64,000 nucleotides of DNA from Candidatus Binataceae bacterium (GTDB lineage: Bacteria > Desulfobacterota > Binatia > Binatales > Binataceae), in assembly GCA_035531675.1 (NCBI GenBank), contig DATKSL010000033.1, positions 160,260 through 224,259 on the forward strand. Direction: 5' to 3'. The notes beneath the pieces were generated by a model. That model had not been told where the DNA came from. It made no database searches and worked only from the letters and a program-made list of their open reading frames with translations. This document shows, piece by piece, positions 1-55,433 of this stretch. The position numbers were made by a program, and so were the translations under genes. How positions within the stretch are numbered: the stretch's first letter is position 1; each line of letters begins with the position of its first letter.

Positions 1-688
1 GGCTGCGGTGTTTCGATCGATCGACGGTGGCCGCAGTTGGGAGCAGCGGCCGGTGGCGTTTCCCGAGCGCTGCCCGATTCCGATCGGTCCGCCGCGCGTG
101 ACCGCGCTGGTGGTCGACCCGGCCAATCATCGCAGCATCTGGGCCGGCGCCGAGGTCGGCGGCGTTTTCCATAGCGTCGATGGTGGCGATAGCTGGCAGG
201 CGATGCCGCCGTTCGGCGACAGCGAGAACGCGCTCGACATCCACGGCGCGGCGATCAGCACTGGCCGCGAGAAGAAGGTTCTGATCACGACGCCCGACGG
301 TATCTGGAGCAGCCGCGACGAGGGGCAGAGCTGGTCGATGCACGGTTTCGAGTTTCCCAATCAGCCGCACAGCGCCTACACCCGCGCGGTGGCGGTGAGC
401 GCCGGCAATCCCGAGGTAATCTTCGTCGGCAACGGCAACATGGTGTTCGGCGACGGCGGCCTGGTGCAGCGCTCGCGCGACGGCGGCCAGAGCTGGGAGA
501 CGCTGGCGCTGCCGGTGGCGCCCAACTCCGCGGTCTACGGCTTCGCCACCAATCCCGCCGATCCCAACGTCGTGATCGCCAACACTTTCTATGGCTACAT
601 CTACCTGAGCGAGAACGGCGGCGATTCGTGGCGCAAGCTGCCGCGCGAGCTCACCGAAATCCGCTCGCAGGCCTGGCTGCCCAACTAG
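1..688 (+). CDS. BNR/Asp-box repeat beta-propeller protein (Ycf48-like/sialidase-like fold), C-terminal fragment; gene begins upstream of the window
   Basis: Five Asp-box repeats (SxDxGxSW: DGGRSW, DGGDSW, DEGQSW, DGGQSW, NGGDSW) at regular spacing. The reading frame is open from position 2 with no upstream stop. Confidence 0.65.
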   Translation, partial: AAVFRSIDGGRSWEQRPVAFPERCPIPIGPPRVTALVVDPANHRSIWAGAEVGGVFHSVDGGDSWQAMPPFGDSENALDIHGAAISTGREKKVLITTPDGIWSSRDEGQSWSMHGFEFPNQPHSAYTRAVAVSAGNPEVIFVGNGNMVFGDGGLVQRSRDGGQSWETLALPVAPNSAVYGFATNPADPNVVIANTFYGYIYLSENGGDSWRKLPRELTEIRSQAWLPN

Positions 689-1626: not shown

Positions 1627-1768
1627 GTGCTTTCTCTCCGGAGAAATGTTTGCAGGTAGCGCGCAAACCCGATGCTCGCACTCCTGCGATCGCTCTTACC
1701 GTGATAGTTCTACTGCGCCGGCGCGCCGATGCGAAAGCGGCGCAATCAGGCCGTGGGAGAAATCGATA

Positions 1769-2863: not shown

Positions 2864-3612
2864 AGCGCGCCCCCGCCGTCGACGTTGAAGGCCTGGCCGG
2901 TAATGAAATCGCTGCCGTCGGAAGCCAGGAACACCACGGTCGGCGAGAGATCGGCGGGCTGCTCGCTGCGCTTGATTATCTGCGCGTTCAGGAGCTCGCG
3001 CTTGACCGTCTCGACGCTCTCGCGGTCGCCGAGACTGGTGGCCGCCTGAGTCATGGTGTAGCCCGGCGTCAGGGTGTTGACGTTGATACCGCTGCCGGAA
3101 AGCTCGCGCGCCAGTGAACGAGTGAGCGCGAACACGGCGCCCTTGGAGGCGACGTAATGCAGGTAGAGCGGGGGGCCCATCCAGATGGTGCCCGAGGACA
3201 CGTTGATTATCTTGCCCTTGCCCTGGCGTCTCATCGCCGGCACTGCCGCCTTGCAGCAGTTCCAGATGCCTTTGACGTTGACCGCCATCACGCGGTCCCA
3301 TTCTTCCTCAGTGATCTGATCGAAGGCGATCCAGCGGCCGAGGTCGGCGGCATTGTTGACCAGCACGTCGATACGCCCGAAACGGCGCACCGCCTCCTCG
3401 GCCATCGCACGCGTCTGCGGCTCCTTGGTGACGTCGACCTTGACCGCGATCGCCTCGCTGCCGGCCTCGACGACCTTGGCGACGGTCGCCTCGCACGGCA
3501 GGATGTCAGCCGCCACGATTTTTGCGCCATTGCGCGCCAGCGCGACGCTGTACTCCTGTCCGAGCCCGCGCGCCGCGCCGGTTACGATAGCCACCCGGCC
3601 GTCCAGCATCAT
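2857..3612 (-). CDS. SDR family short-chain dehydrogenase/reductase
   Basis: TGAARGLG Rossmann motif and YxxxK-type catalytic region. ATGATG start at 3612 with a GGGAGAG RBS; the longer ORF from 3684 adds a non-native leader. Confidence 0.8.
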   Translation of the reverse strand: MMLDGRVAIVTGAARGLGQEYSVALARNGAKIVAADILPCEATVAKVVEAGSEAIAVKVDVTKEPQTRAMAEEAVRRFGRIDVLVNNAADLGRWIAFDQITEEEWDRVMAVNVKGIWNCCKAAVPAMRRQGKGKIINVSSGTIWMGPPLYLHYVASKGAVFALTRSLARELSGSGINVNTLTPGYTMTQAATSLGDRESVETVKRELLNAQIIKRSEQPADLSPTVVFLASDGSDFITGQAFNVDGGGALH

Positions 3613-3641
3613 AGGTATCTCTCCCGCGCCGCGACGGCGCT

Positions 3642-4367
3642 CTAAACGAACACTTCCGAGAACAGGCCGCGCATCGCAGCCCACGAACGCCGGTCAGCCG
3701 CCGGCTGATAGCCAAACCCCGGCATCGGAATCTGATCGGCAGCCGTATTGGTGAAGGCATGCTTCGCGCCGCTGTAGATATTCACCTGCCAATCGACGCC
3801 TACCTTGGTCATCTCCTGCTCGAAGCCTGCCACCTGCGCGGCCGGTACCAGCGGATCTTCGGCGCCGGTGCAGACCAGGATCTTCGGCTTAACCTTGCCG
3901 GGAGCCGCCGGATTCTCGGTCGCCAGCAGGCCGTGGAAAGTGACGGCCCCGGCGAGCTGCGCGCCGCTGCGTGCCAGCTCCAGCACGCAATAGCCGCCGA
4001 AGCAGTAGCCGATCGCGGCGAGCTGCTGCGGATTCACGTTGGGCCGCGCAACCAGCGCATCGTAGCCGGCGCGGAGCCGGCCCTGGAACTTGGGCACGTC
4101 GCCCTTGACCTCGTTCATCATCGCGAGCGCCTCGGGTCCCGAGCCTGCCACCTTGCCCTCGCCATACATGTCGACCGCCAGCGCCACGTAGCCCAACTCG
4201 GCCAGCATCCCGGCCCGCCGCTTGACGTGATCGTCGCAGCCGGGGGCTTCGTGAAAGATCAGCACGCCCGGGCGGCGCTCTGAGCCGTCGGGCGAGGCGA
4301 GGTAGCCGCGCAAGGTGATGCCTTCGTATTTGTAATCCAGAGTTTGCGTCTTCATCCGAGCCTCCAA
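3642..4367 (-). CDS. dienelactone hydrolase family protein
   Basis: DLH-like layout (GYLASP, FHEAPG, nucleophile region CFGG, C-terminal His). A GGAGG RBS lies 5 nt upstream of the ATG at 4367. Confidence 0.8.
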   Translation of the reverse strand: MEARMKTQTLDYKYEGITLRGYLASPDGSERRPGVLIFHEAPGCDDHVKRRAGMLAELGYVALAVDMYGEGKVAGSGPEALAMMNEVKGDVPKFQGRLRAGYDALVARPNVNPQQLAAIGYCFGGYCVLELARSGAQLAGAVTFHGLLATENPAAPGKVKPKILVCTGAEDPLVPAAQVAGFEQEMTKVGVDWQVNIYSGAKHAFTNTAADQIPMPGFGYQPAADRRSWAAMRGLFSEVFV

Positions 4368-4514
4368 TTTTGGGGCCGCTCACCCTCCGCTGATCGGCGA
4401 CGGGTGCGGGCCGGGAACTTTGCGGTAAATCGAGCGCAATGACATCACGCTCTCAGCGCTTCGGCAAGCGAATTCGCAGGCCGAAGCCTGGAGGATCTCT
4501 GTACAAGTCCGGTC

Positions 4515-4577
4515 GTCATTCTGAACGGAGTCTGCGCAGTGAAGAATCCCGGGATTCTTCGCTGCGCTCAGAATGAC
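4515..4577. repeat. 63-bp imperfect palindrome (long hairpin) between the StyA-like and dienelactone-hydrolase genes
   Basis: GTCATTCTGA...GCGCAGTGAAGAATCCC|GGGATTCTTCGCTGCGCTCAGAATGAC. The arms are 27 nt with one mismatch and a 9-nt bulge. No U-tract follows on the transcribed (minus) strand. Confidence 0.5.
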
Positions 4578-4602
4578 AGAATGGGCCTCGTGCAGAAATT
4601 CC

Positions 4603-6390: not shown

Positions 6391-7236
6391 ATGAAATTCG
6401 GCATCCAGACCAAGGTGACCCTTTCCTCGATCGGCGTTGCCGAGCTGGCCCGGGCGATCGAGCAGCGCGGCCTCGAAGCGCTGTTCCTGGCCGAATATAC
6501 CCATATCCCCAAGCAGCATAAGTCGCCGTTCGGCGGACCGTTGCCAGAGCCGTTCTTCAACACCTTCGACCCGCTGATCGCGCTGGCGGCGGCGGCCCAG
6601 GCGACCGGGCGAATTACGCTGGGGACGTGTGTGATGGTGGTGGTGCAGCGCAATCCGATCGTGCTGGCGAAGGAAGTCGCGACGCTCGATCAGTTATCGG
6701 GCGGGCGCTTCGTGCTGGGGGTCGGCGCCGGCGGAATTCCCGAGGCCAACCTGAATCACGGCGTCACGAGTGGGCAACGATGGCAGGTGCTGCGCGAGAC
6801 GGTGCTGGCGCTCAAGCAGATCTGGAACTCCGCCGAGCCCGAATTTCACGGTGAAATCGTCAACTTCGATCCGATCATTTCCAATCCCAAGCCGAAGCGG
6901 CCCGGCGGCCCGCCAATCCTGCTCGGCGGCCACGCGCCGCGGACCATCGAGCGCGCCGCGCAGTACTGCGACGGATGGTTTCCCGGCTTCGGTTACGGGA
7001 GCTTCGATTTGGCGGCGGGAATCGAAGCGTTTCGGCGCGCGGCCGCGAGCGCCGGCCGCTCCGCCGATGCGCTGGCGGTGAACGTAGTCTCGGTGCCGAT
7101 CGACGAGGCGAAGTTGCGGCCGCTGCTGGCGCTGGGGATCGAGCGGATCGTCTTTCAGGTGCCGTCCGAGCCGCGCGACACGATGCTGCCGATACTCGAC
7201 CGCTGCGCCGAGGTCGCCGGTCGACTAAATGGCTGA
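6391..7236 (+). CDS. LLM class (luciferase-like) flavin/F420-dependent oxidoreductase
   Basis: TIM-barrel LLM signature regions (LGxGxG, FHGE...F) across a 281-aa ORF. Confidence 0.8.
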   Translation: MKFGIQTKVTLSSIGVAELARAIEQRGLEALFLAEYTHIPKQHKSPFGGPLPEPFFNTFDPLIALAAAAQATGRITLGTCVMVVVQRNPIVLAKEVATLDQLSGGRFVLGVGAGGIPEANLNHGVTSGQRWQVLRETVLALKQIWNSAEPEFHGEIVNFDPIISNPKPKRPGGPPILLGGHAPRTIERAAQYCDGWFPGFGYGSFDLAAGIEAFRRAAASAGRSADALAVNVVSVPIDEAKLRPLLALGIERIVFQVPSEPRDTMLPILDRCAEVAGRLNG

Positions 7237-7246
7237 GGGCTGAATC

Positions 7247-8224
7247 ATGATTCCACTTACTTTCGCCTGCGGGCTTTACGATCGGATGCTGCCGCTCTAC
7301 AGCGGCGAGGTGCGGCCGGAGGGGATCGATCTCAAGTTCCTCGCGATCGAGTCGCCGCGCGAAATTTTCGACCGCATGGCCGGCAAGATGGAATTCGACG
7401 CCTGCGAGATGTCGAGCTCCGAGCTGATCAGCCGGATGGGCGCCGGCCAATGTCCGTTCGTCGCTATCCCGGTCTTCCCGTCGCGCGTCTTCCGCCACGG
7501 TTTTATCTGCATCAACCGTAACAAGGGCATCAAAACCCCGAAGGACCTGGAGGGCAAACGGGTCGGCGTGCCGCTCTACACGATGTCCGCGGCGCTCTGG
7601 ATTCGCGGCCATCTCCAGCACGAATACGGCGTCGACCTGTCGACGATCCATTGGGTGCAGGGGGCGACCAATGCGCCCGGGGCGCACGGCAGTCCGACCG
7701 TGCTGCCGCTGCTGAAGCCGGTCTCGATCGAGAACAACCACAGCGACCGATCGCTGAGCCAGCTGCTCGAAGCGGGCGCGATCGACGCGATTGCGGGCGC
7801 CGAGATGCCGGCGGCGCTCGGCAAGAGCGCCAACGTCGAGCGGCTGTTTCCGAACTTTCGCGAGGTCGAAAAGGATTTTTACCGGCGCACGCGGATCTTC
7901 CCGATCATGCATCTGGTGGTAATCCGGCGCGAGCTTTACGAGCGTCATCCGTCGGTGGCGGCGAGCCTCTACGATGCGCTCTTGCGCTCGAAGAACATCG
8001 CGCTGGCCCGGATGCGTTACCTCGGGGCGCTGCGCTACATGCTGCCGTGGCTGCCCGCCGACCTCGACGAGCTTGATGAGACCTTCGGCGCCGATCCGTG
8101 GCCGTACGGTATCGAAGCCAACCGGCCGACGCTCGAGGCGCTGGTCAGCTACATGGTCGAGCAATCGTTCATCGCGCGGCCGATTCCAATCGAGGAGCTG
8201 TTCGTCCCGACTGCCGTCCAATGA
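7247..8224 (+). CDS. NMT1/THI5-like periplasmic-binding-fold protein, 4,5-dihydroxyphthalate decarboxylase (Pht5)-like family
   Basis: Motifs recalled for the Pht5 family (IPVFPSRVFRH, GVPxYTMSAAxWxRG, FYRRTRIFPIMH, WPYGIEANRxTLEA). The GAGGG RBS is followed by ATG, and the stop overlaps the next gene start (ATGA). Confidence 0.55.
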   Translation: MIPLTFACGLYDRMLPLYSGEVRPEGIDLKFLAIESPREIFDRMAGKMEFDACEMSSSELISRMGAGQCPFVAIPVFPSRVFRHGFICINRNKGIKTPKDLEGKRVGVPLYTMSAALWIRGHLQHEYGVDLSTIHWVQGATNAPGAHGSPTVLPLLKPVSIENNHSDRSLSQLLEAGAIDAIAGAEMPAALGKSANVERLFPNFREVEKDFYRRTRIFPIMHLVVIRRELYERHPSVAASLYDALLRSKNIALARMRYLGALRYMLPWLPADLDELDETFGADPWPYGIEANRPTLEALVSYMVEQSFIARPIPIEELFVPTAVQ

Positions 8225-9363
8225 GCCGACCACCGTTTCGTGCCGATATCGTCGGGAGCTTTCTGCGCCCGCAAGCGCTCAAGCAGGCGCGCGAAGCGCT
8301 GCTCGGGCCGCAAAGCGCGGATCAGAATCTCGGCCCGCACGACCACCACGAGTTGCGCGCGATCGAGGACGGTTGCATACGCGAGGTGATCGCGATGCAG
8401 CAGCGCGCGGGCCTCAAGTCGGCGACCGACGGCGAATTCCGCCGCCGTAGCTGGTGGCTCGAACTAATCCTCGGCTGGGAGGGGTTTGCCGCCAACCGCA
8501 CCGCGAACTCCGAAGTCACGTGGCGCAACCAGGCCGGTGCCCAGCAGGGATTCTCGCGCCTGTGGCTGACCGGGCGCATCGGATGGCGCCCGAGTGCCGT
8601 GGTGCGCGCCTTCGAATTCCTGAAGGCCAACACCCGGGCCACGCCGAAGGTCACGATGCCGAGTCCCAACCAGGTGCATTTCTTTTTGCGCGGCGACGAC
8701 GGTATCCGCAATTCTTCGGTCTATCGCGAGGTCGATGCGTTCTGGTCGGATCTGGTGGCCGTCTACCGGCGCGAGATTTCCGCGCTGGTGGCCGCCGGGG
8801 CGCGTTATATCCAGCTCGACGACACCAGCATCGTGTTCCTGTGCGATCCCGCGCAGCGCGACGTGATGGCCGGGTGGGGCAAGACGCCCGAAGCGCTGCT
8901 CAATGAGTACGCGGAGCGGATTAACCAGGTGATCGCGGGGTTTCCCGAGGACGTCACCTTCACGTTGCATCAGTGCCGCGGTAATCGCGAAGGTAACTGG
9001 GTCGCCGAAGGCGCCTACGATCCGGTGGCCGAGGTGTTGTTCAACAAGATCAACGTGCAGGGATTTTTTCTCGAGTATGATTCGCCGCGCGCCGGCTCGT
9101 TCGCGCCGTTGCGTTTCCTGCCCAAGGGCAAGACGGTGGTGCTGGGGCTGGTGTCGACCAAGGGTCCGGCCCTGGAAAGCAAGGACGATCTCAAGCGCCG
9201 TATCGACGAAGCGACTCGGGTGGCGCCGCTGGAGCAACTTGCGCTCAGCCCGCAGTGCGGATTCGCCAGCTCGATCAAGGGCAACCCGCTCACCGAGCAG
9301 GACCAACTGGCGAAGCTCACGCGCGTCGTCGAAGTCGCGCGCGAAGTCTGGGGCGACGCCTGA
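8221..9363 (+). CDS. MetE-like (cobalamin-independent methionine synthase II family) Zn-dependent methyltransferase-fold protein
   Basis: N-terminal PPFRADIVGSFLRP motif. Zn-ligand-like HxC (HQC) and a late conserved Cys (SPQCGF). Start coupled to the upstream gene (ATGA). About 380 aa. Confidence 0.7.
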   Translation: MSRPPFRADIVGSFLRPQALKQAREALLGPQSADQNLGPHDHHELRAIEDGCIREVIAMQQRAGLKSATDGEFRRRSWWLELILGWEGFAANRTANSEVTWRNQAGAQQGFSRLWLTGRIGWRPSAVVRAFEFLKANTRATPKVTMPSPNQVHFFLRGDDGIRNSSVYREVDAFWSDLVAVYRREISALVAAGARYIQLDDTSIVFLCDPAQRDVMAGWGKTPEALLNEYAERINQVIAGFPEDVTFTLHQCRGNREGNWVAEGAYDPVAEVLFNKINVQGFFLEYDSPRAGSFAPLRFLPKGKTVVLGLVSTKGPALESKDDLKRRIDEATRVAPLEQLALSPQCGFASSIKGNPLTEQDQLAKLTRVVEVAREVWGDA

Positions 9364-10787: not shown

Positions 10788-11095
10788 GGTTGCACCTGCG
10801 CTTTGCGATCTCTGTTCGAGCGGGAAGTTTCGCCACCCGCATCAGATACCGCAAGCGCGGTAGGCCGTTCGGAGTCATCAAAGGGCTAGCCTAAAGGCTA
10901 GGCAATTCAGGCGGTTAACGAATGGAATCGATCGCGATAGATTAGAGAAACTGAACTGTCGTTGAGATGATTCTGATAGCGAGCCGAGTGGAATCGCCGC
11001 CCTAGTTGACTTTTCCCATTCCTCAACATAAGCAATTATGAGAAATCCTTACGGAACGGGAATGTCTCCCGCCGAGTAACGCGGAGGTTAACCTT

Positions 11096-12397
11096 ATGCG
11101 AAACGCGCTGGTAAGGGCGCTAAGCGTCCTGTTAGGAGCAGTGCTGTTGATGGCGCTGGCTCTGGGCGGAGATGCGCGCGCCGCTGGCGAGGAGGGCCTA
11201 GCGCCTCCTGGCACCGTCATCACGACGAAGAACTGGAAGCAGTACAAGGGCGTGATGGAGCAGGGTCTGCAGGGGCTGTTCTCGGGCGACTATTTCTGGA
11301 AGTTCCCGGCCGACTTTCGCATCGAGATCGGACCGACCCACAATTATCCGCTGCCCAAGCTCTACCAAGAATACACCGAGAAATACAGCAAAGATGTGAA
11401 GATCGTCGACCTTCCTGACGGCGGCCACAGCATCAAGGGATACGTCGGCGGGTTGGCGTTCGCTCATCCGTCGGGGCCGCTCAAGGGTTGGGAGATACTG
11501 GTCAATACCTGGTTCGAGTATGTCCCGCACATCACCTGCGCGCCCAACAACCACGTCTTCCTGCGCGATCGGTATGGGAACCTGACGACCGAAGTTACCA
11601 CCACCGTTTACCGGCAATTCAACTTCGTCAGCGATCCCGGCGTGCCCAATTCCGATCCCGACGGCAAGGGCCTTTACTACTCGGAGTACACCCGGGTTCT
11701 CGCGCCCGAGCAGTCGCGCTACACCACGCAACTTACGCTCTATTACACCGATCCCACCAAGAGCGAGGACCTGTTCCTCTTCATCCCGGCGCTCAGGCGT
11801 ACGCTGCGCCTGTCGGCGGCCTCGCGATGCTCGCCGTTCGTGGGTACCGACTGGACCCAGGACGACGTCAAGCAGTTGTTCAATGGCGGGATCGTGCGTT
11901 TCGACGCCACCCTGGTCGGCGAACCCAAGATTCTCGCCCTGACGGTCGCCAACGAGTCGGCGGTCAGCAACATGAACAATTACTCGATCTTTTTCCCCGG
12001 TCCGAACATCGGCAAATGGGAAGTGCGCGATTCATACCTGCTTGACGTGCGGCGCATCCCCTCGCAGCGCTCCGGCTATTGTTTCGGTAAGCGGATGCTG
12101 TACGTCGACCAGCAGCAGTGGACCCAGTTCTGGGCCGACCTCTACGACGGGAACATGAAATACTGGAAGTCGACCTCTTTCCAGCAGATCGCCCACCAGG
12201 TTCCTGGCGTGGGCCCGGTGATGTATACCGGCGAGTACCTGGTTTCGCTCTGGGATCAGCAGAACAGCCATGCCAGCGCATGGATCGCGAATCCGCCCTA
12301 TGGCACCAACCAGCAGTGCGCGAACCTGGGCGGCATCAACTACACCGACGCCAAGCTCTACTCGAGTGTCGGTGGCTTGAGTTCGATCATGCAGTAA
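11096..12397 (+). CDS. DUF1329 family secreted protein (paralog 1)
   Basis: Signal peptide, about 430 aa, composition and motif pattern of DUF1329. About 45 % identical to a second copy at 54114-55433 (for example LRRTLRLSxAxRCSP, IGKWEVR, GYCxGKRxxY). Confidence 0.55.
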   Translation: MRNALVRALSVLLGAVLLMALALGGDARAAGEEGLAPPGTVITTKNWKQYKGVMEQGLQGLFSGDYFWKFPADFRIEIGPTHNYPLPKLYQEYTEKYSKDVKIVDLPDGGHSIKGYVGGLAFAHPSGPLKGWEILVNTWFEYVPHITCAPNNHVFLRDRYGNLTTEVTTTVYRQFNFVSDPGVPNSDPDGKGLYYSEYTRVLAPEQSRYTTQLTLYYTDPTKSEDLFLFIPALRRTLRLSAASRCSPFVGTDWTQDDVKQLFNGGIVRFDATLVGEPKILALTVANESAVSNMNNYSIFFPGPNIGKWEVRDSYLLDVRRIPSQRSGYCFGKRMLYVDQQQWTQFWADLYDGNMKYWKSTSFQQIAHQVPGVGPVMYTGEYLVSLWDQQNSHASAWIANPPYGTNQQCANLGGINYTDAKLYSSVGGLSSIMQ

Positions 12398-12421
12398 TCG
12401 TTACGGATTGCTGGTTTTCGG

Positions 12422-12461
12422 CGAAGGCTCGGTCGCGGACAGCGGTCGAGCCTTCGCGCTT
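12422..12461 (+). terminator. putative intrinsic terminator after DUF1329 gene
   Basis: Perfect 10-bp stem (CGAAGGCTCG / CGAGCCTTCG) with a 14-nt loop at 12422-12455, followed by CGCTTTC. Only a weak U-tract. Confidence 0.35.
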
Positions 12462-12565
12462 TCAGGGCCGGGATCCGCCGCGGGAGCCGGCGCCCGCCGA
12501 TCGCGATACGGCTCGACCGCCTCCGCCAGGTTGCTCAGGTTGCTAAAACCGGCTGCCCGACTATT

Positions 12566-13876
12566 GTGCAGCAGTTGGACCAGCAGATGGCGATTTCGTC
12601 GATCAACATCGAAGCGCCGCACGACCAGGGATGGCCGCGCCGCTATACCGTCATCGTGCTGTTCGCGCTCGGCACCGCGCTCTGCTACATCGACCGCGTC
12701 AATATCTCGATCGCGATCATTCCGCTGGCCGCGGACAAGGGCTACGACGCGGCCGCCCAGGGACTGGTCCTGTCGTCGTTCTTCTGGGGCTATATATGGC
12801 TGCAGATGCTCGGCGGATGGCTGGCCGATCGTTTCGGCGGCAAGCGCGTGCTGATGGCGGGTGTGGCGATTTGGTCGCTGGCGACCGCGCTCACGCCGCC
12901 GGCCGCCTCGATTTCGTTCGGCGCCCTGCTCGTGACCCGCGCCCTGCTGGGCGCCGGCGAGGGGCTCAACTTTCCGGCCGTGCACAGCGTTGCGGCGCGC
13001 TGGACGCTGGTGACCGAGCGGGCGCGCGCCATCGCGTTTCACTTCAGCGGCCTGACCTTCGGCACTATCGTCGCGCTGCTGGTGAGTCCGGCGATCGTGA
13101 TCGACTTGGGATGGCCGTCGGTGTTCTACATTTCCGGCGCGCTGGGCCTGGTATGGCTTGCCGCCTGGTATATAAAGGCCGCCGACGCGCCCGAGGATTG
13201 TCCCGGCGTCAGCGCGCACGAGCTGGCCACCATCGCGGCCGGGCGGCCCGAGATGCCGCTGGCGGGGTCCATTCCGTGGGCTGCGATCCTGCACGAGCCG
13301 GCGGTGTGGGCTATCGTCATCGCCCATCTGTGCAACAATTTCGGCTTCTATATCATCCTGCTATGGCTGCCGAGCTATCTCTCGCACACCTTCCAGGTGC
13401 CGATGGCGCGGCTGGGCGAGCTTTCGGTCATCCCGTACGCGGTCGCCTTCGTGATGCAGAACGCCAGCGGATGGTTCGCCGACACGTTGCAGAAACGCGG
13501 CATGAGTCTGACCGCGGTGCGCAAATCGATGCAGACGGCGGCCTTCGCGGCGGGCGCGATACCGCTTATCGCACTGCCGGCGGCGACCTCGGCGGGCGTC
13601 GCGGTCACCCTGGTGACACTGTCGATCGGCGGTTCGTCGCTGGGCGTTGCCGCCTTCGCCGTCAATCACCTTGACGTCGCGCCGCGCTACGCGGGCATCC
13701 TGATGGGGCTGTCGAACACCTTCGCCACCATCCCCGGCATCGTCGGCGTCGCCGCCACCGGCTTCATCCTCCAAAAGACCAATTCGTTCGCCGCGGCCTT
13801 CTACCTGACCGCCGTCGTCTACGCGATCGGGATGGTCTGCTACCTCGCCATCGGCAGCGGCGACCGCAAGATCTGA
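12566..13876 (+). CDS. MFS transporter (anion:cation symporter-like)
   Basis: 12 predicted hydrophobic segments. MFS motifs DRxGxKR (DRFGGKRVL) and a PESP-like loop. Confidence 0.8.
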   Translation: MQQLDQQMAISSINIEAPHDQGWPRRYTVIVLFALGTALCYIDRVNISIAIIPLAADKGYDAAAQGLVLSSFFWGYIWLQMLGGWLADRFGGKRVLMAGVAIWSLATALTPPAASISFGALLVTRALLGAGEGLNFPAVHSVAARWTLVTERARAIAFHFSGLTFGTIVALLVSPAIVIDLGWPSVFYISGALGLVWLAAWYIKAADAPEDCPGVSAHELATIAAGRPEMPLAGSIPWAAILHEPAVWAIVIAHLCNNFGFYIILLWLPSYLSHTFQVPMARLGELSVIPYAVAFVMQNASGWFADTLQKRGMSLTAVRKSMQTAAFAAGAIPLIALPAATSAGVAVTLVTLSIGGSSLGVAAFAVNHLDVAPRYAGILMGLSNTFATIPGIVGVAATGFILQKTNSFAAAFYLTAVVYAIGMVCYLAIGSGDRKI

Positions 13877-14016
13877 CCGGGGCGTGCGGGTTGACGGCCG
13901 GGCCTCGATCGCGGAGATTTGGGGGAAGGAACCGGGTTGCCAGCGCAATCGCCCACTGCGTAGCGTACTGGCGACGCCTTACCATGAGGGCGGCCCTCGC
14001 TGGCCGTTAAAAAACT

Positions 14017-15036
14017 ATGGCAATCGATCTGCACGCGCACTGGATTCCCAAGTCACTCTCCGACGTGCTGAGGAAGCGCACCGAGCGGCCCAAGATCGGG
14101 CTCACCGCCGACGGCCAGGAATTCATCGATTGCGAGCTGCCCTCGCTGCGCGTCCCCAAGGGCTTCGACGATCTGGCGACGCGCATCGCCGACATGGATC
14201 GCAACGGCATCACGCACGGCGTCCTGTCGCTCTCCACCGTGTACGGCGTCGAGTGCCTGCCGCTGGCCGAGTCGATCGAGCTGTGCCGGACCTACAATGA
14301 CGCGATTTCGGCCGCCTGCGCCGCCTATCCCGAGCGCTTCTCGGGCCTGGCCGCGCTCCCCGGCGCCGAGGTCGGTGCGATGCTGGCCGAGTTCGAGCGC
14401 GCCAGCGACTTGCCAGGGATGGTCGGCGCGCTGGTGCCGGGCGACGGATTTCTTACGGTGCAGCGGGCTGAGAAATTCCGTCCGATCTTCGAGGCGGCGC
14501 AGCGGCGTCGATCGATCCTGCTGGTGCATTACGGCCGGCTGTTCGACGATCCCGGCGCCCCGCACGCCGACACTTCGGATAACGCTCACGCCCGCATCGG
14601 CACGCTCGACATGCAGGCGCGGCTGTCCTCGAACATGATCACCTTTTGCCTGAGCGACTTCCTGGCCGCTTATCCCAACGTCACGGTGGTGAGCCATAAC
14701 CTCGGCGGCAACCTGCCGTTCGAGGTCGAGCGCCTCGACCATCGCATCCTGGTCGATCGGCCCGGCGACGAGCTGCCCTCCAGGCGCATCCGCGCGGCGC
14801 ACGTGCTGGTGGATTGCAACTCCTTCGGCGCGCGCTCGATCGAGCGGGCGGTGGAAGTCTATGGTGCGCACCGGATCGTACTGGGCTCGGACGGCACCGA
14901 TTTCGGGATGAAATGGTCGCGCGACGCGATCACCGCCGCGCATATCAGCGACGCCGACAAGCAGGCGATTCTCGAGGGCAACGCCGCCGCGGCATTGGCT
15001 CGCGTCAGGCACGTCAGCGCTGCCGCGGCTGCCTAG
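14017..15036 (+). CDS. amidohydrolase-2 family protein (ACMSD/LigW-type)
   Basis: N-terminal IDLHAHW metal motif and conserved His/Asp core. 339 aa. Confidence 0.75.
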   Translation: MAIDLHAHWIPKSLSDVLRKRTERPKIGLTADGQEFIDCELPSLRVPKGFDDLATRIADMDRNGITHGVLSLSTVYGVECLPLAESIELCRTYNDAISAACAAYPERFSGLAALPGAEVGAMLAEFERASDLPGMVGALVPGDGFLTVQRAEKFRPIFEAAQRRRSILLVHYGRLFDDPGAPHADTSDNAHARIGTLDMQARLSSNMITFCLSDFLAAYPNVTVVSHNLGGNLPFEVERLDHRILVDRPGDELPSRRIRAAHVLVDCNSFGARSIERAVEVYGAHRIVLGSDGTDFGMKWSRDAITAAHISDADKQAILEGNAAAALARVRHVSAAAAA

Positions 15037-15120
15037 TCGGTTGCGGTCACCACGACCGCGGCGGTTTTACGCAGCGCGCTTCCTCTCCATCGTGTGGCAC
15101 TCGGCGGGTCGAGTAGAGAG

Positions 15121-17133
15121 ATGACGCAGACCCACCGCACGATGTGTCCGATGAATTGCCTGCCGACGGTCTGCGGCATGCAAGTCGAAGTCGCCGACGG
15201 GCAGGTGGCCGGCGTCCACGGCGACCCGAGCAATCCCGAAAGCCAGGGCTTCCTCTGTATTCGCGGGCGCGCGGCGGGCGAGATTATCGACAGCCCCAGC
15301 CGCATCCTGCGACCCCGCGTTCGCGATCGCAGAAATTCCGATAACTGGCGCGATACGACCTGGGACGCTGCGCTCGACGACCTCGCCGGGGCGATCCGCG
15401 CTGCCGGCGCGGATCGCACTGCCGTCTGGTGCGGGCACGGTGCGATCGTCAACACCGTCGGGCTGATGCTGTCGTGGCGGTTCGCCCATATGCTGGGCGC
15501 GCAATGGTGGGTGCCGTCGATTGTATGCTGGGGGCTCGGCGGTTTCGGGGTCTGGCTGACCGGCTTGCCGGCCGTGAACTCCGCCGATGATCTCGCTGAG
15601 AACGCGGAGCTGGTGATGTTATGGGGCGCCAACCTCGCCAGCCAGCCGACCACCGCGCCGCGTATCAGCGCCGCGAGACGGCGCGGCGCGCGGGTAATTG
15701 CGATCGATGTGCGTCGCAGCGAGGCCTGCGATCACGCCGACCAGTATCTGCTGGTGCGCCCCGGTACCGACGCGGCGTTGGCGCTGGCGATGATGCAAGT
15801 GATCGTCGACGAGGGGCTGCACGATCGCGAGTTCATCGAGCGTCACACGGTCGGCTTCGAGGCGCTGTCGGCGCACATCGCCGGCTGCACGCCCGAGTGG
15901 GCTGCGGCCGAGACCGGCGTGCCGGCGGAACAGATACGGGCGCTGGCCCGCGAGTATGCCGCCTCCCGGCGCGCCACGATCCTGCTCGGCGGGAGCTCGA
16001 TGAACAAGACCGCCAATCGATGGTATGCGGCGCGAGCCATCTTGTGCCTGCCGGCGTTGACCGGCAACCTTGGCCGCCCCGGCGCGGGGATGGGGCCGCG
16101 CCACGGCGCCGGCGTCTGGTACAACGCCTTCAGCAGCATCGTTCCGCCCGATCGAAAAGCGCCCGAGACGGTCATCCTCGGCGAGATGGATACCATCCTG
16201 GACCGCATCGAGTCCGGGGCTATCGAGGTTCTAATCCTGCCGGGCACCAACATGCTCTCGTCGTTCGCCGACACCGCACGCCTGGAGCGGGCGATCGCGC
16301 ACGTCAGGCGCGTGGTCTGCATCGATCTCTTCATGAGCGACACCGCGCGTGCGGTCGCCGATATCGTCTTGCCCGGCACCGCCTGGCTCGAAGAGAGCGG
16401 GCTGAAATTCGGCCCTACGCATGTTCATCTGATGGACCGCGTACTCGAGCCGCGCGGCGAGACTCGTCCAATCTGGCGCATCTTCGCGGAGCTTGCCGAG
16501 CGCCTCAAGCTCGACGGTTACTTTCCCTGGCGCTCGGTCGACGAACTGCTCGACGCGATGCTCGACAATGATCAGACCGGCCACGCCACGGTCGCGGAGA
16601 TGAGAACGTCGGAGCCGAGCCGGCGCGCCAACATTCCGAGCTATGCCTATGCGGGGCTCCAGTTTCCGACCCCGTCGGGCAAGGTCGAGTTCTTTTCCGA
16701 ACGGGCGCGGGTGATGGGCCTGCCGCCGTTGCCGGTTTACGAACCTCCGGCCCACGGCGCCGCCTATCCGCTCGCATTCGTCCAGGGCCGCACGCTTACC
16801 CATTTCCACGCCTTCTATGACCATGGTCGCGCGCTGCCTTCGCTGGCCAAGGCCGATCGCGAGCCGGTGTTGTGGATCAGTTCCGCCGACGCCCTGAGCC
16901 GCAGTATCGACGACGGTGCGATGGTGCGGCTCTACAACGAGGGCGGCGAGATGCGGGCTCGCGCGCGAGTGACGGAGCGGATGCCGCCCGGGACGGTATG
17001 GATGCGCGACGGATGGCTGGGGATCAACCGCTTGACCAGTTCGGTACGCACGGTGCCGGACGCGGCGGTGGCAGCGTTCCCGCAGAGCGGCTCCGCCCGC
17101 TACGACTCCTTTGTCGAGGTATCAGCCGACTAG
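15121..17133 (+). CDS. molybdopterin-dependent oxidoreductase (DMSO reductase/formate dehydrogenase superfamily catalytic subunit)
   Basis: N-terminal Cys cluster (CPMNCLPTVCG) for a 4Fe-4S site, MopB-type core and a C-terminal molybdopterin dinucleotide-binding region. Start taken at MTQTH (15121); the ORF is open from 15094. Confidence 0.7.
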   Translation: MTQTHRTMCPMNCLPTVCGMQVEVADGQVAGVHGDPSNPESQGFLCIRGRAAGEIIDSPSRILRPRVRDRRNSDNWRDTTWDAALDDLAGAIRAAGADRTAVWCGHGAIVNTVGLMLSWRFAHMLGAQWWVPSIVCWGLGGFGVWLTGLPAVNSADDLAENAELVMLWGANLASQPTTAPRISAARRRGARVIAIDVRRSEACDHADQYLLVRPGTDAALALAMMQVIVDEGLHDREFIERHTVGFEALSAHIAGCTPEWAAAETGVPAEQIRALAREYAASRRATILLGGSSMNKTANRWYAARAILCLPALTGNLGRPGAGMGPRHGAGVWYNAFSSIVPPDRKAPETVILGEMDTILDRIESGAIEVLILPGTNMLSSFADTARLERAIAHVRRVVCIDLFMSDTARAVADIVLPGTAWLEESGLKFGPTHVHLMDRVLEPRGETRPIWRIFAELAERLKLDGYFPWRSVDELLDAMLDNDQTGHATVAEMRTSEPSRRANIPSYAYAGLQFPTPSGKVEFFSERARVMGLPPLPVYEPPAHGAAYPLAFVQGRTLTHFHAFYDHGRALPSLAKADREPVLWISSADALSRSIDDGAMVRLYNEGGEMRARARVTERMPPGTVWMRDGWLGINRLTSSVRTVPDAAVAAFPQSGSARYDSFVEVSAD

Positions 17134-20232: not shown

Positions 20233-21294
20233 ATGACGGATCGCACAAACGCTAAGCTGGAATTCGGACTGTTCAACCATATCGAGAAAAGCAGCGGCAG
20301 CCCGGCGCTCGACGTACTTTACGACGAGCATATCGGGTTCATTCAGCAAGCCGAACAGGCGGGCTTCTGGGGCTATCACCTGGCGGAGCATCACGCCACG
20401 CCGCTGTCGATGGTGCCGTCGCCGGGCTTGTTCCTGGCGGCGCTGGCCCGCCAGACCAAGCGGATTCGATTGGGCCCGCTGGTCTACCTGCTGCCGTTCT
20501 ACAACCCGCTCCGGCTGATCTACGAAATCTGCATGCTGGATAACCTCTCGGGCGGACGGCTCGAGATTGGAGTCGGGCGCGGCATCAACGTTTACGAGCA
20601 TCAGTTCTACCGCATCAATACGCTGGAGGCGCGCGAAATTTTCGAAGAGGCGCTCGAAGTACTCATCAAGGGGCTGACCCACGATCGGCTGAAGCATCGT
20701 GGAATCCATTTTCGCTTCGACGACGTGCCGCTGATGGATCTGCGGCCGTTGCAGCAGCCCTATCCGGGCCTGTGGTACGGGGCATTGAACGACAATTCGA
20801 TCGTTTTCGCCGCCCGCCGCGGGATGAACGTCGGCACCGGCGGACCGCTGCCGGCGCTCAAGCGCGCGGTCGAGCTTTACTGGGAGACGCGCAAACAATA
20901 CGCGAACTCGCCGGACAATCTGCAGCCGCACGTGACCGATCCTAAAATCGGACCGCTGCGCTTTTTGTATGTCGACGATGACGAACGCCGGGGCGAGGCG
21001 GTCGCCCGCGTCGCCTATGACGTTTACGAGCGCAACATCAACAAGCTGGTGAATGACTACGGGCTGAACGACAATCGGGTGACTATTCCGTACGACGTGA
21101 TGCGCGCAGGCGGCGCGATGATCGTCGGTTCGCCGAGCCGCGTCCACGACGAGATCGCGCACCAGCTCGCAGAGGCCCGCTTCAACTACATCATGCTGAA
21201 TATGAAATTCGGCAGCCTGCAGGCCGCCGAGTCGCTGCGATCACTGGAACTGTTCGCCGCTAAGGTGATGCCGGAACTGATTAAACGCGGCTGA
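20233..21294 (+). CDS. LLM class flavin-dependent oxidoreductase
   Basis: 353-aa luciferase-like TIM-barrel protein with LSGGRLExGxGxG region. Confidence 0.8.
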   Translation: MTDRTNAKLEFGLFNHIEKSSGSPALDVLYDEHIGFIQQAEQAGFWGYHLAEHHATPLSMVPSPGLFLAALARQTKRIRLGPLVYLLPFYNPLRLIYEICMLDNLSGGRLEIGVGRGINVYEHQFYRINTLEAREIFEEALEVLIKGLTHDRLKHRGIHFRFDDVPLMDLRPLQQPYPGLWYGALNDNSIVFAARRGMNVGTGGPLPALKRAVELYWETRKQYANSPDNLQPHVTDPKIGPLRFLYVDDDERRGEAVARVAYDVYERNINKLVNDYGLNDNRVTIPYDVMRAGGAMIVGSPSRVHDEIAHQLAEARFNYIMLNMKFGSLQAAESLRSLELFAAKVMPELIKRG

Positions 21295-21412: not shown

Positions 21413-22594
21413 ATGACGACCGAGATCACCAACCAGCGCTGGACGCGGAAGTTCCCCGAGCTGGGAACGGCGCCGGTGGCGGCCGAGTCGTGCGTTTCGC
21501 CGGAGTTCTTCGAGCGTGAACGCGAGCGCATCTTCAGGCATTCGTGGCTGTGCGTCGGCAACGTTTGCGAGTTGCCCGAGCGCGGCGACTACATCGTCAG
21601 GGAGGTCGCGATCTGCGACGCCCAGCTGCTGCTGATTCGCGGGCAGGACGGCGTGGTGCGCGGCTTTCACAACGTCTGCTCGCATCGCGGCAACACCCTG
21701 GCCTGGGACCGAGCGGGAAAATGCCGCGGCTATCTGACCTGCAATTTCCACTCCTGGGGCTATGATTCGAGCGGCCAGCTCAAGTGGATTCCTGACGCCG
21801 AAAACTTCTTCGATCTCGACCGCAGCAAGCTCGGCCTGACTCCGGTCGCCACCGAGATTTTCAACGGCTTCATCTTCATCAATCTCGATCCGCAACAGAC
21901 CCTGACCGAGTACCTCGAGGGCGTGACCGAGCGGCTGACGCCGGTGGGCTTCGATCAGCTGCGATTGCAACGCATGTATCGGGTCAACGAGCGGGCCAAC
22001 TGGAAGGTCGCGATGGACGCCCAGAACGAGGGCTACCACGTCTTTTCGCAACATCGTTACCTGATGCCGAACCTGTTCATCACGACCAAGGAAGGCTGCA
22101 TGCGCTCAGCGGAGATGGCGTTCTTCGGCCGTCACAGTGTTTCCGGCAGCAATCTCAACCCCGCCTACCAGCCGTTCCCGCTGGAGGGGTTGATGTTCCA
22201 GATCGACAAGGGGCCTTCGCGATGTCGGCTGCCGATGCGCAACCAGTTCGAGTTCCACATGATTTTTCCGAACTTCGCGATGCTGTTCTTTCGGTTTCCG
22301 GCCAATGACTATTGCATCACGCACAATTTCTGGCCGATCGCGGTCGATCGCACGCTGTGGGAGATAAGATTTTACGCGCCCGCGCCGCTCAACGCCGCCG
22401 AGCGCCTCAGCCAGGACTTCATGCAGGTCTTCAACCGCGTGGTGTTCGACGAGGATGCGACCGCGCACGAGACTGTCCATGCGGGCCTCGCCTCGCGCGC
22501 GAAAAAGTATCTGCTATTGCAGGACGAGGAGATCGCGATTCGGCATTTCCACAAGGTCCTCGACGATCAGCTCGCGATCCGCAACGGAGCCTGA
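21413..22594 (+). CDS. Rieske non-heme iron aromatic-ring-hydroxylating oxygenase, alpha subunit
   Basis: Rieske CxH...CxxH (CSHRG...CNFHSWG) and a catalytic domain with a His/Asp mononuclear iron region. 393 aa. Confidence 0.8.
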   Translation: MTTEITNQRWTRKFPELGTAPVAAESCVSPEFFERERERIFRHSWLCVGNVCELPERGDYIVREVAICDAQLLLIRGQDGVVRGFHNVCSHRGNTLAWDRAGKCRGYLTCNFHSWGYDSSGQLKWIPDAENFFDLDRSKLGLTPVATEIFNGFIFINLDPQQTLTEYLEGVTERLTPVGFDQLRLQRMYRVNERANWKVAMDAQNEGYHVFSQHRYLMPNLFITTKEGCMRSAEMAFFGRHSVSGSNLNPAYQPFPLEGLMFQIDKGPSRCRLPMRNQFEFHMIFPNFAMLFFRFPANDYCITHNFWPIAVDRTLWEIRFYAPAPLNAAERLSQDFMQVFNRVVFDEDATAHETVHAGLASRAKKYLLLQDEEIAIRHFHKVLDDQLAIRNGA

Positions 22595-53816: not shown

Positions 53817-53965
53817 CCAAGCGGTCGCTTAATTCAGCAGGCTTTGAGTGCAGAAAGATATATGTATCAATTTAAAGCATCCGGGATGGTGATCGGCATA
53901 GCTGAGCTTAGTCTACGTTTCGCTCGGTATGGCAGGCAAAAATCTACCCTGCGAATTAGGCGGGT

Positions 53966-53994
53966 TTGACAAACAAATAAGCCATTGTTATGGA
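53966..53994 (+). promoter_or_regulatory. candidate sigma70-like promoter (TTGACA-17 nt-TATGGA) upstream of DUF1329 paralog 2
   Basis: Hexamers and 17-nt spacing were read from the sequence. It is located in a 300-bp AT-rich leader. The -10 element is weak. Confidence 0.3.
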
Positions 53995-54113
53995 GCGGAC
54001 TGCGCGTACCGCTGTTTCGGGACTTTGAGCGTCGCTTGGGACCGACGCTGTTACAACGTGCTCGCGCGTCAATCTTGGACAAGGTTGCCGCGGCGGCCGA
54101 AAGGAAGGGGCAG

Positions 54114-55433
54114 ATGGTTACGAGTCGAACTGTTGGACGGGTTCTGGCGCTGTTCGTGGCCTTGGTTCTGATCGGCGCGTCGATGGCGCCGCCCGCGCGC
54201 GGTGCCGGGCCGGAAGCATCGCTTCCGGTCGGCACCGTCATTACCGAGAAGAACTGGGAGCAGTACAAGGCCTTCATGAACCCCGGTTTGCAGGCGCTTT
54301 GGGCCGGCACCTATCAGTGGAAGCTAGGGCCTCAGTTCTCGATGGAAATCGGGCCAACGCATCATTACGAATGGCCGCCGACCTATAAGAAGCTGACCGA
54401 GGAATACGCCGGCAAGGTTCAGATCAAGACCCTGCCTGACGGCCGCCACATCCTGGAAAACTACGTCGCCGGAATGCCGTTCCCGAACCCGCAGGAGCCG
54501 ATGAAGGGTTGGAAGATACTGGCCAACGACTGGTTCGCCTACGTTCCCTACCTGATCTGCAACGATTCAGTGGGCCAGGTGTTCCGCGATCGGATGGGCA
54601 ACGTCAGCCAGAACGAAAGCATCATCGTGCTGCGCATCTACGACCATATCGCCGATCCAAACCGGCCGGTTACGGATCCCAAGGCGTCCGGCATCTATTA
54701 CACGGAATACTTTGAACTGACCAAGCCCGAGCAGGCGCGCTATACCGCGATTCTGACGGTCTTCTACCAGGATCAGACCAAGAACGAAGATACCTTCCTG
54801 TTCGTGCCGGCGCTGCGGCGGACGCTGCGCCTGTCGTCGGCGGCGCGATGCAGCCCGGTGTTCGGCTCCGACGCCACCAACGACGACACTCGTCATGGCG
54901 CTTTCAACGGCAACATCACCAAGTTCGACGCGGCGTTCCTCGGCGATGCGCGGGTGATCGAGCAGACCAACCCGGATGTCGTCAAGTCGGGCTTCCTTGA
55001 GAATTTCATTCCGCCGCTCTATTTTCCCAAGCCCTTCATCGGCAAATGGGAAGTGCGCAACGTATACGTGATCGACGCGCGCCATATTCCTGCGCTGCGC
55101 CCCGGCTACTGCTACGGCAAGCGGATCATGTACTGCGACAAGGAGACCGGCAACGCGAAGTGGGCCGAGCTCTACGACGAGAACCTGAAGCTGTGGAAGA
55201 TCTTTTACGATCCGCAGGGGATGGTGAAGGTACCGGGCGAGGGCGAGTATTGGACCAATGCCGCCTGGGGCACGATTATCGACGTCCAGAACATCCACGA
55301 GACCTGGGTCCATCTGTCCGGCCCTACCGGTCCGGTCCGGGCAGACGCTGACTGCGGGCACGTCAATGGCGTGAATCTGACCGACGCCGGTCGCTATGGC
55401 AGCGTCCGCGGCTTGTCGGAAATCATGCGCTGA
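54114..55433 (+). CDS. DUF1329 family secreted protein (paralog 2)
   Basis: AAGGAAGGGG RBS and ATG at 54114. Signal peptide. Colinear with the 11096 gene. Confidence 0.55.
   Translation: MVTSRTVGRVLALFVALVLIGASMAPPARGAGPEASLPVGTVITEKNWEQYKAFMNPGLQALWAGTYQWKLGPQFSMEIGPTHHYEWPPTYKKLTEEYAGKVQIKTLPDGRHILENYVAGMPFPNPQEPMKGWKILANDWFAYVPYLICNDSVGQVFRDRMGNVSQNESIIVLRIYDHIADPNRPVTDPKASGIYYTEYFELTKPEQARYTAILTVFYQDQTKNEDTFLFVPALRRTLRLSSAARCSPVFGSDATNDDTRHGAFNGNITKFDAAFLGDARVIEQTNPDVVKSGFLENFIPPLYFPKPFIGKWEVRNVYVIDARHIPALRPGYCYGKRIMYCDKETGNAKWAELYDENLKLWKIFYDPQGMVKVPGEGEYWTNAAWGTIIDVQNIHETWVHLSGPTGPVRADADCGHVNGVNLTDAGRYGSVRGLSEIMR

Follow-up and report, generated by a model that had tools for sequence, protein, structure and literature searches.

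Two DUF1329 genes of a Binataceae bacterium point to an expanded subfamily of putative periplasmic carriers

The DUF1329 proteins form a widespread family without known biochemical function that has repeatedly been linked to growth on monoterpenes, phenanthrene and fatty esters. Here we describe two DUF1329 genes in a stretch of DNA from a Candidatus Binataceae bacterium (GenBank contig DATKSL010000033.1, positions 160,260 to 224,259 of the forward strand; 64,000 nucleotides, hereafter the window), together with the subfamily to which they belong. Binataceae is a family within the candidate phylum Binatota, so the proteobacterial frame of reference in which an initial annotation had set these genes does not apply. 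Genome studies have so far linked Binatota to methylotrophy and alkane degradation (PMC8262859); the same reference genomic study does not mention DUF families, LolA or MMPL, and in the literature on DUF1329 we found no paper dealing with Binatota. The gene map of the window was made from a six-frame listing of open reading frames (ORFs) with a filter on the GC content of third codon positions (GC3), and domains were assigned by a Pfam scan. The two genes and their flanking elements are as follows.

10788..11095, + strand: non-coding leader of paralog 1, 308 bp, 51.6% GC
11096..12397, + strand: DUF1329 paralog 1, 433 aa, Pfam PF07044 and LolA_like PF17131
12421..12462, + strand: terminator-like hairpin 3' of paralog 1, 16-bp stem and GGACA loop, then GC and a TTT run
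53817..54113, + strand: non-coding leader of paralog 2, 297 bp, 52.5% GC
54114..55433, + strand: DUF1329 paralog 2, 439 aa, PF07044 with an E-value of 4.2e-35 and 122.2 bits
55448..55495, + strand: intrinsic-terminator-like hairpin 3' of paralog 2, 20-bp stem ending in UUUU

The assignment to DUF1329 made in the initial annotation is right, as both products match the PF07044 profile above its cut-off (23.1 bits), paralog 1 with an E-value of 8.5e-32 and 111.3 bits over model positions 1-332 of 368. The genes had been taken for diverged paralogs of about 45% identity, the second at 54 kb, and we find 44% over 434 residues. Both ORFs are intact with a coding-type GC3 of approximately 0.8, and identical genes recur on several independent assemblies (ENA, JGI, Logan), which rules out a pseudogene or an assembly artefact for either. 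The start of paralog 2 is most likely ATG 54114, which is preceded by AAGGAAGG as ribosome-binding site and for which a product with exactly that start is recorded in public assemblies. It replaces a start at 53985; a further candidate at 54093 has, unlike ATG 54114, no recorded product.

AT-rich leaders of about 300 bp had been claimed for both genes, which agrees with the lengths and GC contents listed above when set against 63.1% GC for the window overall. By sequence reading, the leader of paralog 1 contains a promoter-like TTGACT-N17-TAAGCA and a GGAGG ribosome-binding site, and that of paralog 2 a TTGACA-N17-TATGGA upstream of its ribosome-binding site. A consensus promoter scan called no site in the leader of paralog 1, and a search against Rfam identified no known RNA element in the DUF1329 leaders or anywhere else in the window. 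The hairpin that had been noticed at 12422-12461 is a real one. Its 16-bp stem, with arms at 12421-12436 and 12442-12457 followed by GCUUUC, is kept in three orthologous loci (L007, L008 and L009 of the survey described below) with compensatory changes, 4 of 17 pairs being altered on both sides, and the hairpins behind the paralog 1 orthologs there are followed by T-runs of 4-5. A simple consensus terminator scan made no call at 12422-12461 because the T-run of the window copy is just 3. The hairpin of paralog 2 has a minimum free energy (MFE) of -35.7 kcal/mol, with a z-score of -3.98 against shuffles.

Both proteins, which had been described as secreted, carry Sec-type signal peptides as judged by eye: that of paralog 1 comprises residues 1-29 and ends in …DARA before AG, that of paralog 2 ends in …PARG before AG. 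The N-termini are basic and then hydrophobic and have an AxA-type site without a lipobox cysteine, as is the case, again by eye, in most paralogs. Since these are AxA-type signal peptides that lack a lipobox, the products are predicted to be soluble exported proteins and not lipoproteins.

The structural model of paralog 1, obtained with AlphaFold2 from a 46-sequence alignment (pLDDT 91.0, pTM 0.87), has an alpha/beta N-terminal module at residues ~40-140, followed at ~146-400 by a long antiparallel beta-barrel region of the LolA-like type that had been anticipated. Foldseek against the PDB gave as best matches to this C-terminal barrel LolA3 of Porphyromonas gingivalis (9tp6), the DUF1329 protein DESPIG_00262 (4z48) and a Vibrio protein (3bk5), with E-values of ~1e-16 and target TM-scores of 0.78-0.83. 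All three are single-domain proteins of ~240 aa that lack the N-terminal module and show 13-15% identity to the window protein; a sequence-only search of the PDB also finds them, weakly, with alignments at the PALRR motif. Next in the Foldseek ranking come NE2245, RseB/MucB, LolA and LolB, and the distant VioE is also among the structural neighbours. LolA/LolB and RseB/MucB share the open beta-barrel fold of the same superfamily, but as structural matches they are much weaker (target TM-scores 0.27-0.5, and 0.4-0.5 for LolA and LolB). The window DUF1329 proteins have no LolA or LolB match in Pfam or NCBIfam, and no LolCDE genes lie nearby.

Across 90 paralogs the N-terminal module and the motif FIPALRRxLRLSxAxRCSP are the most conserved parts, and barrel strands 146-170, 281-300 and 361-420 the most variable. 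C245 and C329 are invariant across the 46 aligned sequences, and among close paralogs cysteines 148, 245, 329 and 408 are all invariant. These residues are specific to the subfamily: proteobacterial DUF1329 proteins have none of the four, and the operon-type DUF1329 proteins of Binataceae described below lack C245 and C329. The invariant C245/C329 would fit a disulfide in an exported protein, and the four cysteines suggest two subfamily-specific disulfides.

To place the two genes we made use of a survey of species-representative genomes, one per species, which yielded 79 loci (L007-L085) or 80 with the window. The scan was based on an alignment of 20 closer subfamily sequences and relied on two peptide patterns, and only the best 80 matches were retained. 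The 1206 proteins of the loci and the window were clustered into 650 families, i.e. the DUF1329 subfamily and 649 families made up of 1112 other genes. The survey comprises 94 distinct subfamily paralogs, of which only 65 contain the two peptide patterns; most second copies inside loci carry neither. All named closest homologs of the window proteins are from Candidatus Binataceae bacteria, and the metagenome-assembled genomes (MAGs) behind the 79 loci are labelled either Binataceae or with the older 'Deltaproteobacteria/Proteobacteria'. The subfamily is narrow, with just 117 clusters at an E-value of 1e-30 or smaller among 1.84 billion representatives and, judged by this distribution, it is a lineage-specific expansion of Binataceae. 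Single MAGs contain at least 15 (Centralia_MAG_294), at least 14 (clean291), at least 11 (SMAG_U14964), at least 10 (FK1.bin62) and, in another, at least seven copies. LolA, which is single-copy and essential, differs from the subfamily in both copy number and genomic scatter.

The organisation of the copies is that of stand-alone genes. DUF1329 genes are preceded by gaps with a median length of 316 bp, the other genes of the loci by gaps of 137 bp (Mann-Whitney p 3e-14), and the gap reaches 200 bp or more in 76% of the former versus 36% of the latter. For the 80 nt that follow the stop codon the median MFE is -32 versus -24 kcal/mol (p 1e-11), with values of -35 kcal/mol or lower for 43% of DUF1329 genes and 9% of the others, and in 49 of 90 cases the downstream gene lies on the opposite strand. 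At positions -3 to +3 of the 94 DUF1329 genes no neighbour family recurs. From the long leaders, the stable downstream hairpins and the lack of a recurring neighbour we infer that the genes of the subfamily are monocistronic units and not operon heads. Their upstream regions show no sigma-54 promoter signal and no common motif; TTGACA and a sigma-70-like spacing are mildly enriched.

The surroundings had been called catabolic, and that description holds for the window (see below) as well as for the subfamily. Given as raw counts in the loci, the commonest families within 10 kb of DUF1329 are catabolic, among them luciferase-like monooxygenases (41 genes in 23 loci), Amidohydro_2 proteins, short-chain dehydrogenases, alpha/beta hydrolases, Rieske oxygenases, enoyl-CoA hydratases and hydantoinases; aldehyde dehydrogenases, sigma-54 activators, CoA ligases, amidases and UbiD decarboxylases are common as well. 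Further neighbours are heme A synthesis genes, HEAT-repeat proteins, chromate transporters and UvrA.

A few arrangements within the survey deserve mention in their own right. Tandem arrays occur, with four DUF1329 genes in a row in FK5.bin90 (L085 6306-12880) and, in two other MAGs, pairs that follow CtaA/CtaB-like genes for heme A synthesis (L058 9983-13164 and L059 9794-13033). One orthogroup is present in seven MAGs, every locus coming from a different MAG, and has a stable neighbourhood in L055, L060, L065, L070, L072 and L076 (~8.2-13.4 kb) in the order Mur-ligase-like, acetyl-CoA hydrolase/transferase, DUF1329, HbpS-like, aldehyde dehydrogenase. In two of these six loci an MMPL gene lies at the locus edge, ~9 kb from DUF1329. 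This orthogroup may represent the ancestral copy.

DUF1329 is usually paired with DUF1302, and the initial annotation had considered the lack of a DUF1302 gene in the window atypical. The absence itself is confirmed: precomputed Pfam calls on all called genes, extra scans and a DUF1302 profile applied to the six-frame translation identified none in the window. The 10 kb to the left of the window contain neither DUF1302 nor MMPL, and no MMPL gene was found within the window; a DUF1302 gene directly adjacent but just outside would, according to the initial annotation, have made this a standard pair. The absence is however not atypical, since 91 of the 94 paralogs have no DUF1302 within 10 kb; only three do, two of them directly adjacent. 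A missing DUF1302 is thus ordinary in this lineage and nothing specific to this island, which leaves a modest message for the locus that was flagged. The profile was made from 60 lineage homologs of the L024 DUF1302 protein plus two proteobacterial sequences and found the DUF1302 genes of L024, L029 and L067, all confirmed by Pfam. A phmmer search with two proteobacterial plasmid DUF1302 proteins gave no match in the loci and was too insensitive, as it missed the true DUF1302 of L024.

The few loci with partner genes are diverse. In L024, which belongs to SMAG_U14964, a MAG that also holds an 86% identical ortholog of paralog 1, DUF1302 is the first gene of an operon that also encodes a highly divergent DUF1329 protein and an MMPL pump, and the same DUF1302-DUF1329-MMPL operon is found in two further assemblies (L089 and L092). 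DUF1302 is followed by a subfamily DUF1329 in L029. In L067 (6893-12568) the order is reversed, with a subfamily DUF1329, then DUF1302, then two genes for NHL-repeat beta-propellers that may replace the Ycf48/BNR propeller known from canonical clusters. L026 has a Ycf48-like gene, an MMPL gene and a subfamily DUF1329 in a row. A full MMPL gene is close to DUF1329 in only 2 of the 80 subfamily loci, with two more at the locus edge. Orphan DUF1329 genes are found outside Binataceae too: Paraburkholderia plasmid p3 carries a proteobacterial DUF1329 without an adjacent DUF1302, and extra DUF1329 paralogs were noted by Price et al. (10.1101/072470). On its short contig, the L029 pair (88-4589) adjoins a gene for a Mu-like prophage I protein (PF10123).

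A BNR/Ycf48-like fragment had been reported at the start of the window, and Pfam bears this out.

8..688, + strand: BNR/Ycf48-like beta-propeller, 3' part; the full gene codes for 334 aa

This gene lies 10 kb upstream of paralog 1, is flanked by a gene of the fumarylacetoacetate-hydrolase family and by luciferase-like monooxygenase genes, and does not adjoin any MMPL, DUF1329 or DUF1302 gene; its product is weakly similar (E-value 6.7e-8) to the MMPL-linked Ycf48-like protein of L026. About 4.6 kb left of the window, a 496-aa ORF (L005 14290-15780) has weak PQQ/BamB-like beta-propeller matches far below the Pfam cut-offs.

The systems with which the subfamily can be compared are AmeB of AmeABCD from Castellaniella defragrans and the proteobacterial clusters of DUF1302, DUF1329, Ycf48/BNR and MMPL (RND) genes, as in Shewanella (Sama_1588-1591), Pseudomonas putida (PP_0765/0766) and Azoarcus (pAZKH). 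Their DUF1329 proteins have PF07044 in common with the window proteins and are also alike in having an N-terminal module with a LolA-like barrel, an (I/L)PxxRR motif and export, and in lying near catabolic genes for hydrophobic or aromatic compounds. They differ in that identity is only 20-25%, or 22-25% with the proteobacterial DUF1329 proteins, and in a ~45-residue N-terminal insert that the proteobacterial and the operon-type proteins possess whereas the window subfamily does not. The canonical four-gene system is moreover an operon with DUF1302, Ycf48 and MMPL, in contrast to the seemingly monocistronic subfamily with its at least 10-15 copies in single genomes. The operon-type DUF1329 proteins of Binataceae (L024 14855-16054, L089, L092) come from the same lineage as the window genes and match both PF07044 and PF17131, but share only ~16-19% identity with the window protein, to which BLAST gives no link; the operon type has kept the canonical operon, unlike the window subfamily.

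Our preferred reading, which we hold with moderate confidence, is that both window genes belong to a Binataceae-specific, expanded subfamily whose members are transcribed independently and act in the periplasm as soluble carriers of compounds with poor solubility. Such a carrier would be located in the periplasm, where its barrel would shield a poorly water-soluble molecule, either a lipid or a growth substrate of hydrophobic or aromatic nature, and would shuttle it between the outer membrane and inner-membrane transporters. The ligand would differ from paralog to paralog, and the few DUF1302 barrels and MMPL/RND pumps elsewhere in the genomes could be common docking partners. The fold of LolA, LolB and RseB shields acyl chains, and it is this property, together with the phenotypes of distant relatives, that leads to a carrier. 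A transposon insertion in ameB lowers growth of Castellaniella on monoterpenes (PMC6394551); deletion of a DUF1329 gene in Delftia, according to a paper that cites the work (PMC13101534), impairs growth on phenanthrene; and in Pseudomonas putida, mutations in DUF1302/DUF1329 genes impair fitness on fatty esters (10.1101/2020.07.04.188060). A substrate-capture role had been deduced previously from the missing DUF1302 and tied to the catabolic island. The role remains the most plausible one because of the fold and these published phenotypes; its deduction from the missing partner does not stand, and a dedicated tie to the island is rather unlikely.

The preferred reading has several points against it. 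The window's own genome yielded no DUF1302; the DUF1302 genes detected belong to the sibling MAG SMAG_U14964 and to other samples, and the closest relatives of the L024 DUF1302 come from samples other than the window's. A shared DUF1302 or MMPL partner is something that we purely infer. A conserved N-terminal module combined with variable barrel strands fits other explanations as well. The copy counts are minima, given incomplete MAGs, a cut at the best 80 matches and peptide patterns that occur in only 65 of 94 paralogs, while the loci were picked by similarity and their genes, like those of the window, predicted with a simple codon-likelihood caller. Finally, Price et al. prefer export of an envelope component over uptake (10.1101/072470).

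A more daring version of the carrier reading, which we regard as possible rather than probable, proposes many carriers and few gates: dozens of independently regulated soluble DUF1329 carriers, each with its own ligand, would dock via the conserved N-terminal module onto a few shared DUF1302 barrels and MMPL pumps. If true, this would amount to the logic of periplasmic binding proteins applied to water-insoluble substrates, which is undescribed for DUF1329. Bug/TctC periplasmic binding proteins of Bordetella and Cupriavidus, which bind carboxylates for tripartite tricarboxylate transporters, exist in many copies that are mostly orphans and transcribed separately, while their cognate membrane components are few. 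The analogy with the window subfamily concerns organisation alone, as fold and family are unrelated.

The strongest rival explanation involves the genes downstream of paralog 1.

12587..13876, + strand: MFS transporter, 429 aa, Pfam MFS_1 E-value 1.3e-51; the ORF is open from 12566, and start codon 12587 is conserved in orthologs
14017..15036, + strand: Amidohydro_2 enzyme, 339 aa, Pfam PF04909 E-value 1e-18
15121..17133, + strand: bis-MGD molybdopterin oxidoreductase, 670 aa, Molybdop_Fe4S4, Molybdopterin and Molydop_binding domains; the ORF is open from 15094

The nearest NCBIfam models of the MFS protein, both below their cut-offs, are TIGR00894 and TIGR00893 (anion:cation symporter; galactonate and phosphate-cotransporter). 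A PDB sequence search with the Amidohydro_2 protein gave gamma-resorcylate decarboxylase (2dvt), ACMSD and 5-carboxyvanillate decarboxylase, so its closest solved relatives are non-oxidative aromatic-acid decarboxylases. The molybdenum enzyme is predicted to be cytoplasmic, with an N-terminal 4Fe-4S domain and no visible twin-arginine signal; all its NCBIfam matches are far under the cut-offs, and its PDB relatives include thiosulfate reductase, FdhF and acetylene hydratase. It is reasonable to suppose from these similarities that the neighbours import and decarboxylate an aromatic or heteroaromatic acid.

Paralog 1 could then be the dedicated substrate-capture part of this set, co-regulated with it and binding the same aromatic acid, which we consider rather unlikely. 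The initial annotation let DUF1329 head a string of these genes, and indeed all four are co-oriented on the plus strand in the order given. The transporter is of the organic-anion symporter type, the enzyme resembles aromatic-acid decarboxylases, and the order DUF1329-MFS-Amidohydro_2 is kept in the window, L007, L008 and L009 despite other upstream genes in L009. Even the hairpin could be accommodated, since behind a first gene it can serve as an attenuator that raises the ratio of binding protein to transporter, a mechanism that is established in binding-protein operons. As the head of an operon paralog 1 is rather improbable, however, although transcripts may read through the hairpin. The successive gaps of 189, 140 and 84 bp are not those of a tightly packed operon, and the first of them contains, directly 3' of DUF1329, the conserved hairpin with its T-run. 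A short GC-rich hairpin followed by UUUU also lies between the Amidohydro_2 and molybdenum-enzyme genes (15037-15120), and given this each gene of the string may be separately terminated.

Conservation of the order is ambiguous too. The orthologs of paralog 1 with 79-89% identity lie in collinear neighbourhoods of Binataceae MAGs, but these relatives are close and the collinearity extends to unrelated genes (MsrA, MAPEG, luciferase-like, Rieske), so that the adjacency of DUF1329 and MFS may be mere collinearity. The molybdenum-enzyme gene is dispensable, being absent from L007. At 60% identity to paralog 1 the neighbours are different, namely Rieske oxygenases (L011), and they also differ around an ortholog of paralog 2 (L035). 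No transporter or enzyme family recurs beside DUF1329 across the 94 paralogs, and we know of no MFS symporters that use periplasmic binding proteins. Adjacency is for these reasons weak evidence of a functional tie. The MFS, decarboxylase-like and molybdenum-enzyme genes probably form a separate set for uptake and catabolism of an organic acid, its link to the DUF1329 gene being, as far as gene order can tell, at most loose.

According to a second rival, clearly unlikely in our view, the proteins serve cell-envelope biogenesis and export, together with MMPL/RND, Ycf48-like and DUF1302 proteins, a lipid or outer-membrane component, as has been suggested for the clusters of Proteobacteria, the paralogs being either redundant or meant for different lipids. 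Price et al. reported that DUF1302, DUF1329, a BNR protein and an RND exporter show cofitness and that the phenotypes are pleiotropic (10.1101/072470), which would suit such a function, as would a fold common to the lipoprotein and lipid carriers LolA, LolB, LolA3 and RseB and the MMPL-linked copies of the lineage (L024, L026). At least 10-15 paralogs per genome among diverse catabolic genes are on the other hand hard to square with housekeeping, MMPL genes are as scarce near DUF1329 as stated above, and it is specifically growth on hydrophobic substrates for which relatives are required. That the protein is instead an enzyme, such as the esterase for hydrophobic esters that was raised, tentatively by its authors' own account, for PP_0765/PP_0766 from fitness on butyl stearate and Tween 20 (10.1101/2020.07.04.188060), is very improbable: polar residues E205, S240, D387, H392 and R234/R235/R244 are invariant or nearly so in the subfamily, but conservation of S240, D387 and H392 does not extend to the DUF1329 proteins of Proteobacteria or of the operon type, neither a hydrolase family nor a hydrolase fold was detected, and the structural neighbours are non-catalytic carriers or sensors except for the distant VioE.

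While DUF1329 itself is a known family, the Binataceae subfamily, its soluble cysteine-bearing form, its release from the operon and its copy number appear to be undescribed, and the expansion is a trait not reported before for Binatota, an uncultured phylum. A lineage in which DUF1329 has been freed from its usual operon and multiplied is a natural experiment: comparison of the paralogs could reveal the residues for ligand specificity and the surface for docking of a partner, and any single soluble copy would be an easy target for ligand screening and crystallography.

Directly downstream of paralog 2, and convergent with it, lie two genes for a putative efflux system.

55547-57172, - strand: EmrB-like DHA2 MFS efflux pump, NCBIfam TIGR00711, 441 bits, above the cut-off
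57186-58295, - strand: EmrA-like periplasmic adaptor, beside the EmrB-like gene

An 89% identical ortholog of paralog 2 (L038) has M24 peptidase and EmrAB neighbours in common with the window, whereas the neighbours of the 91% identical ortholog in L035 differ. The EmrB-like and EmrA-like genes are probably unrelated to paralog 2.

Elsewhere, the window is dense in paralogous catabolic families.

6391-7236, 20233-21294, 36161-37234 and 50329-51387: four luciferase-like monooxygenases
1769-2863, 14017-15036 and 44099-45148: three Amidohydro_2 proteins
8221-9363, 58940-60094 and 60200-61306: three MetE-C-terminal-like Meth_synt_2 proteins
21413-22594, 42760-44061 and 46170-47378: three Rieske oxygenases

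On the minus strand, positions 27558-31718 code for a 1386-aa protein with G8 and CEMIP beta-helix domains, an unusual large protein of secreted type for a bacterial catabolic region, and the gene is followed on the same strand by a 442-aa ORF (26233-27561) without a Pfam match.

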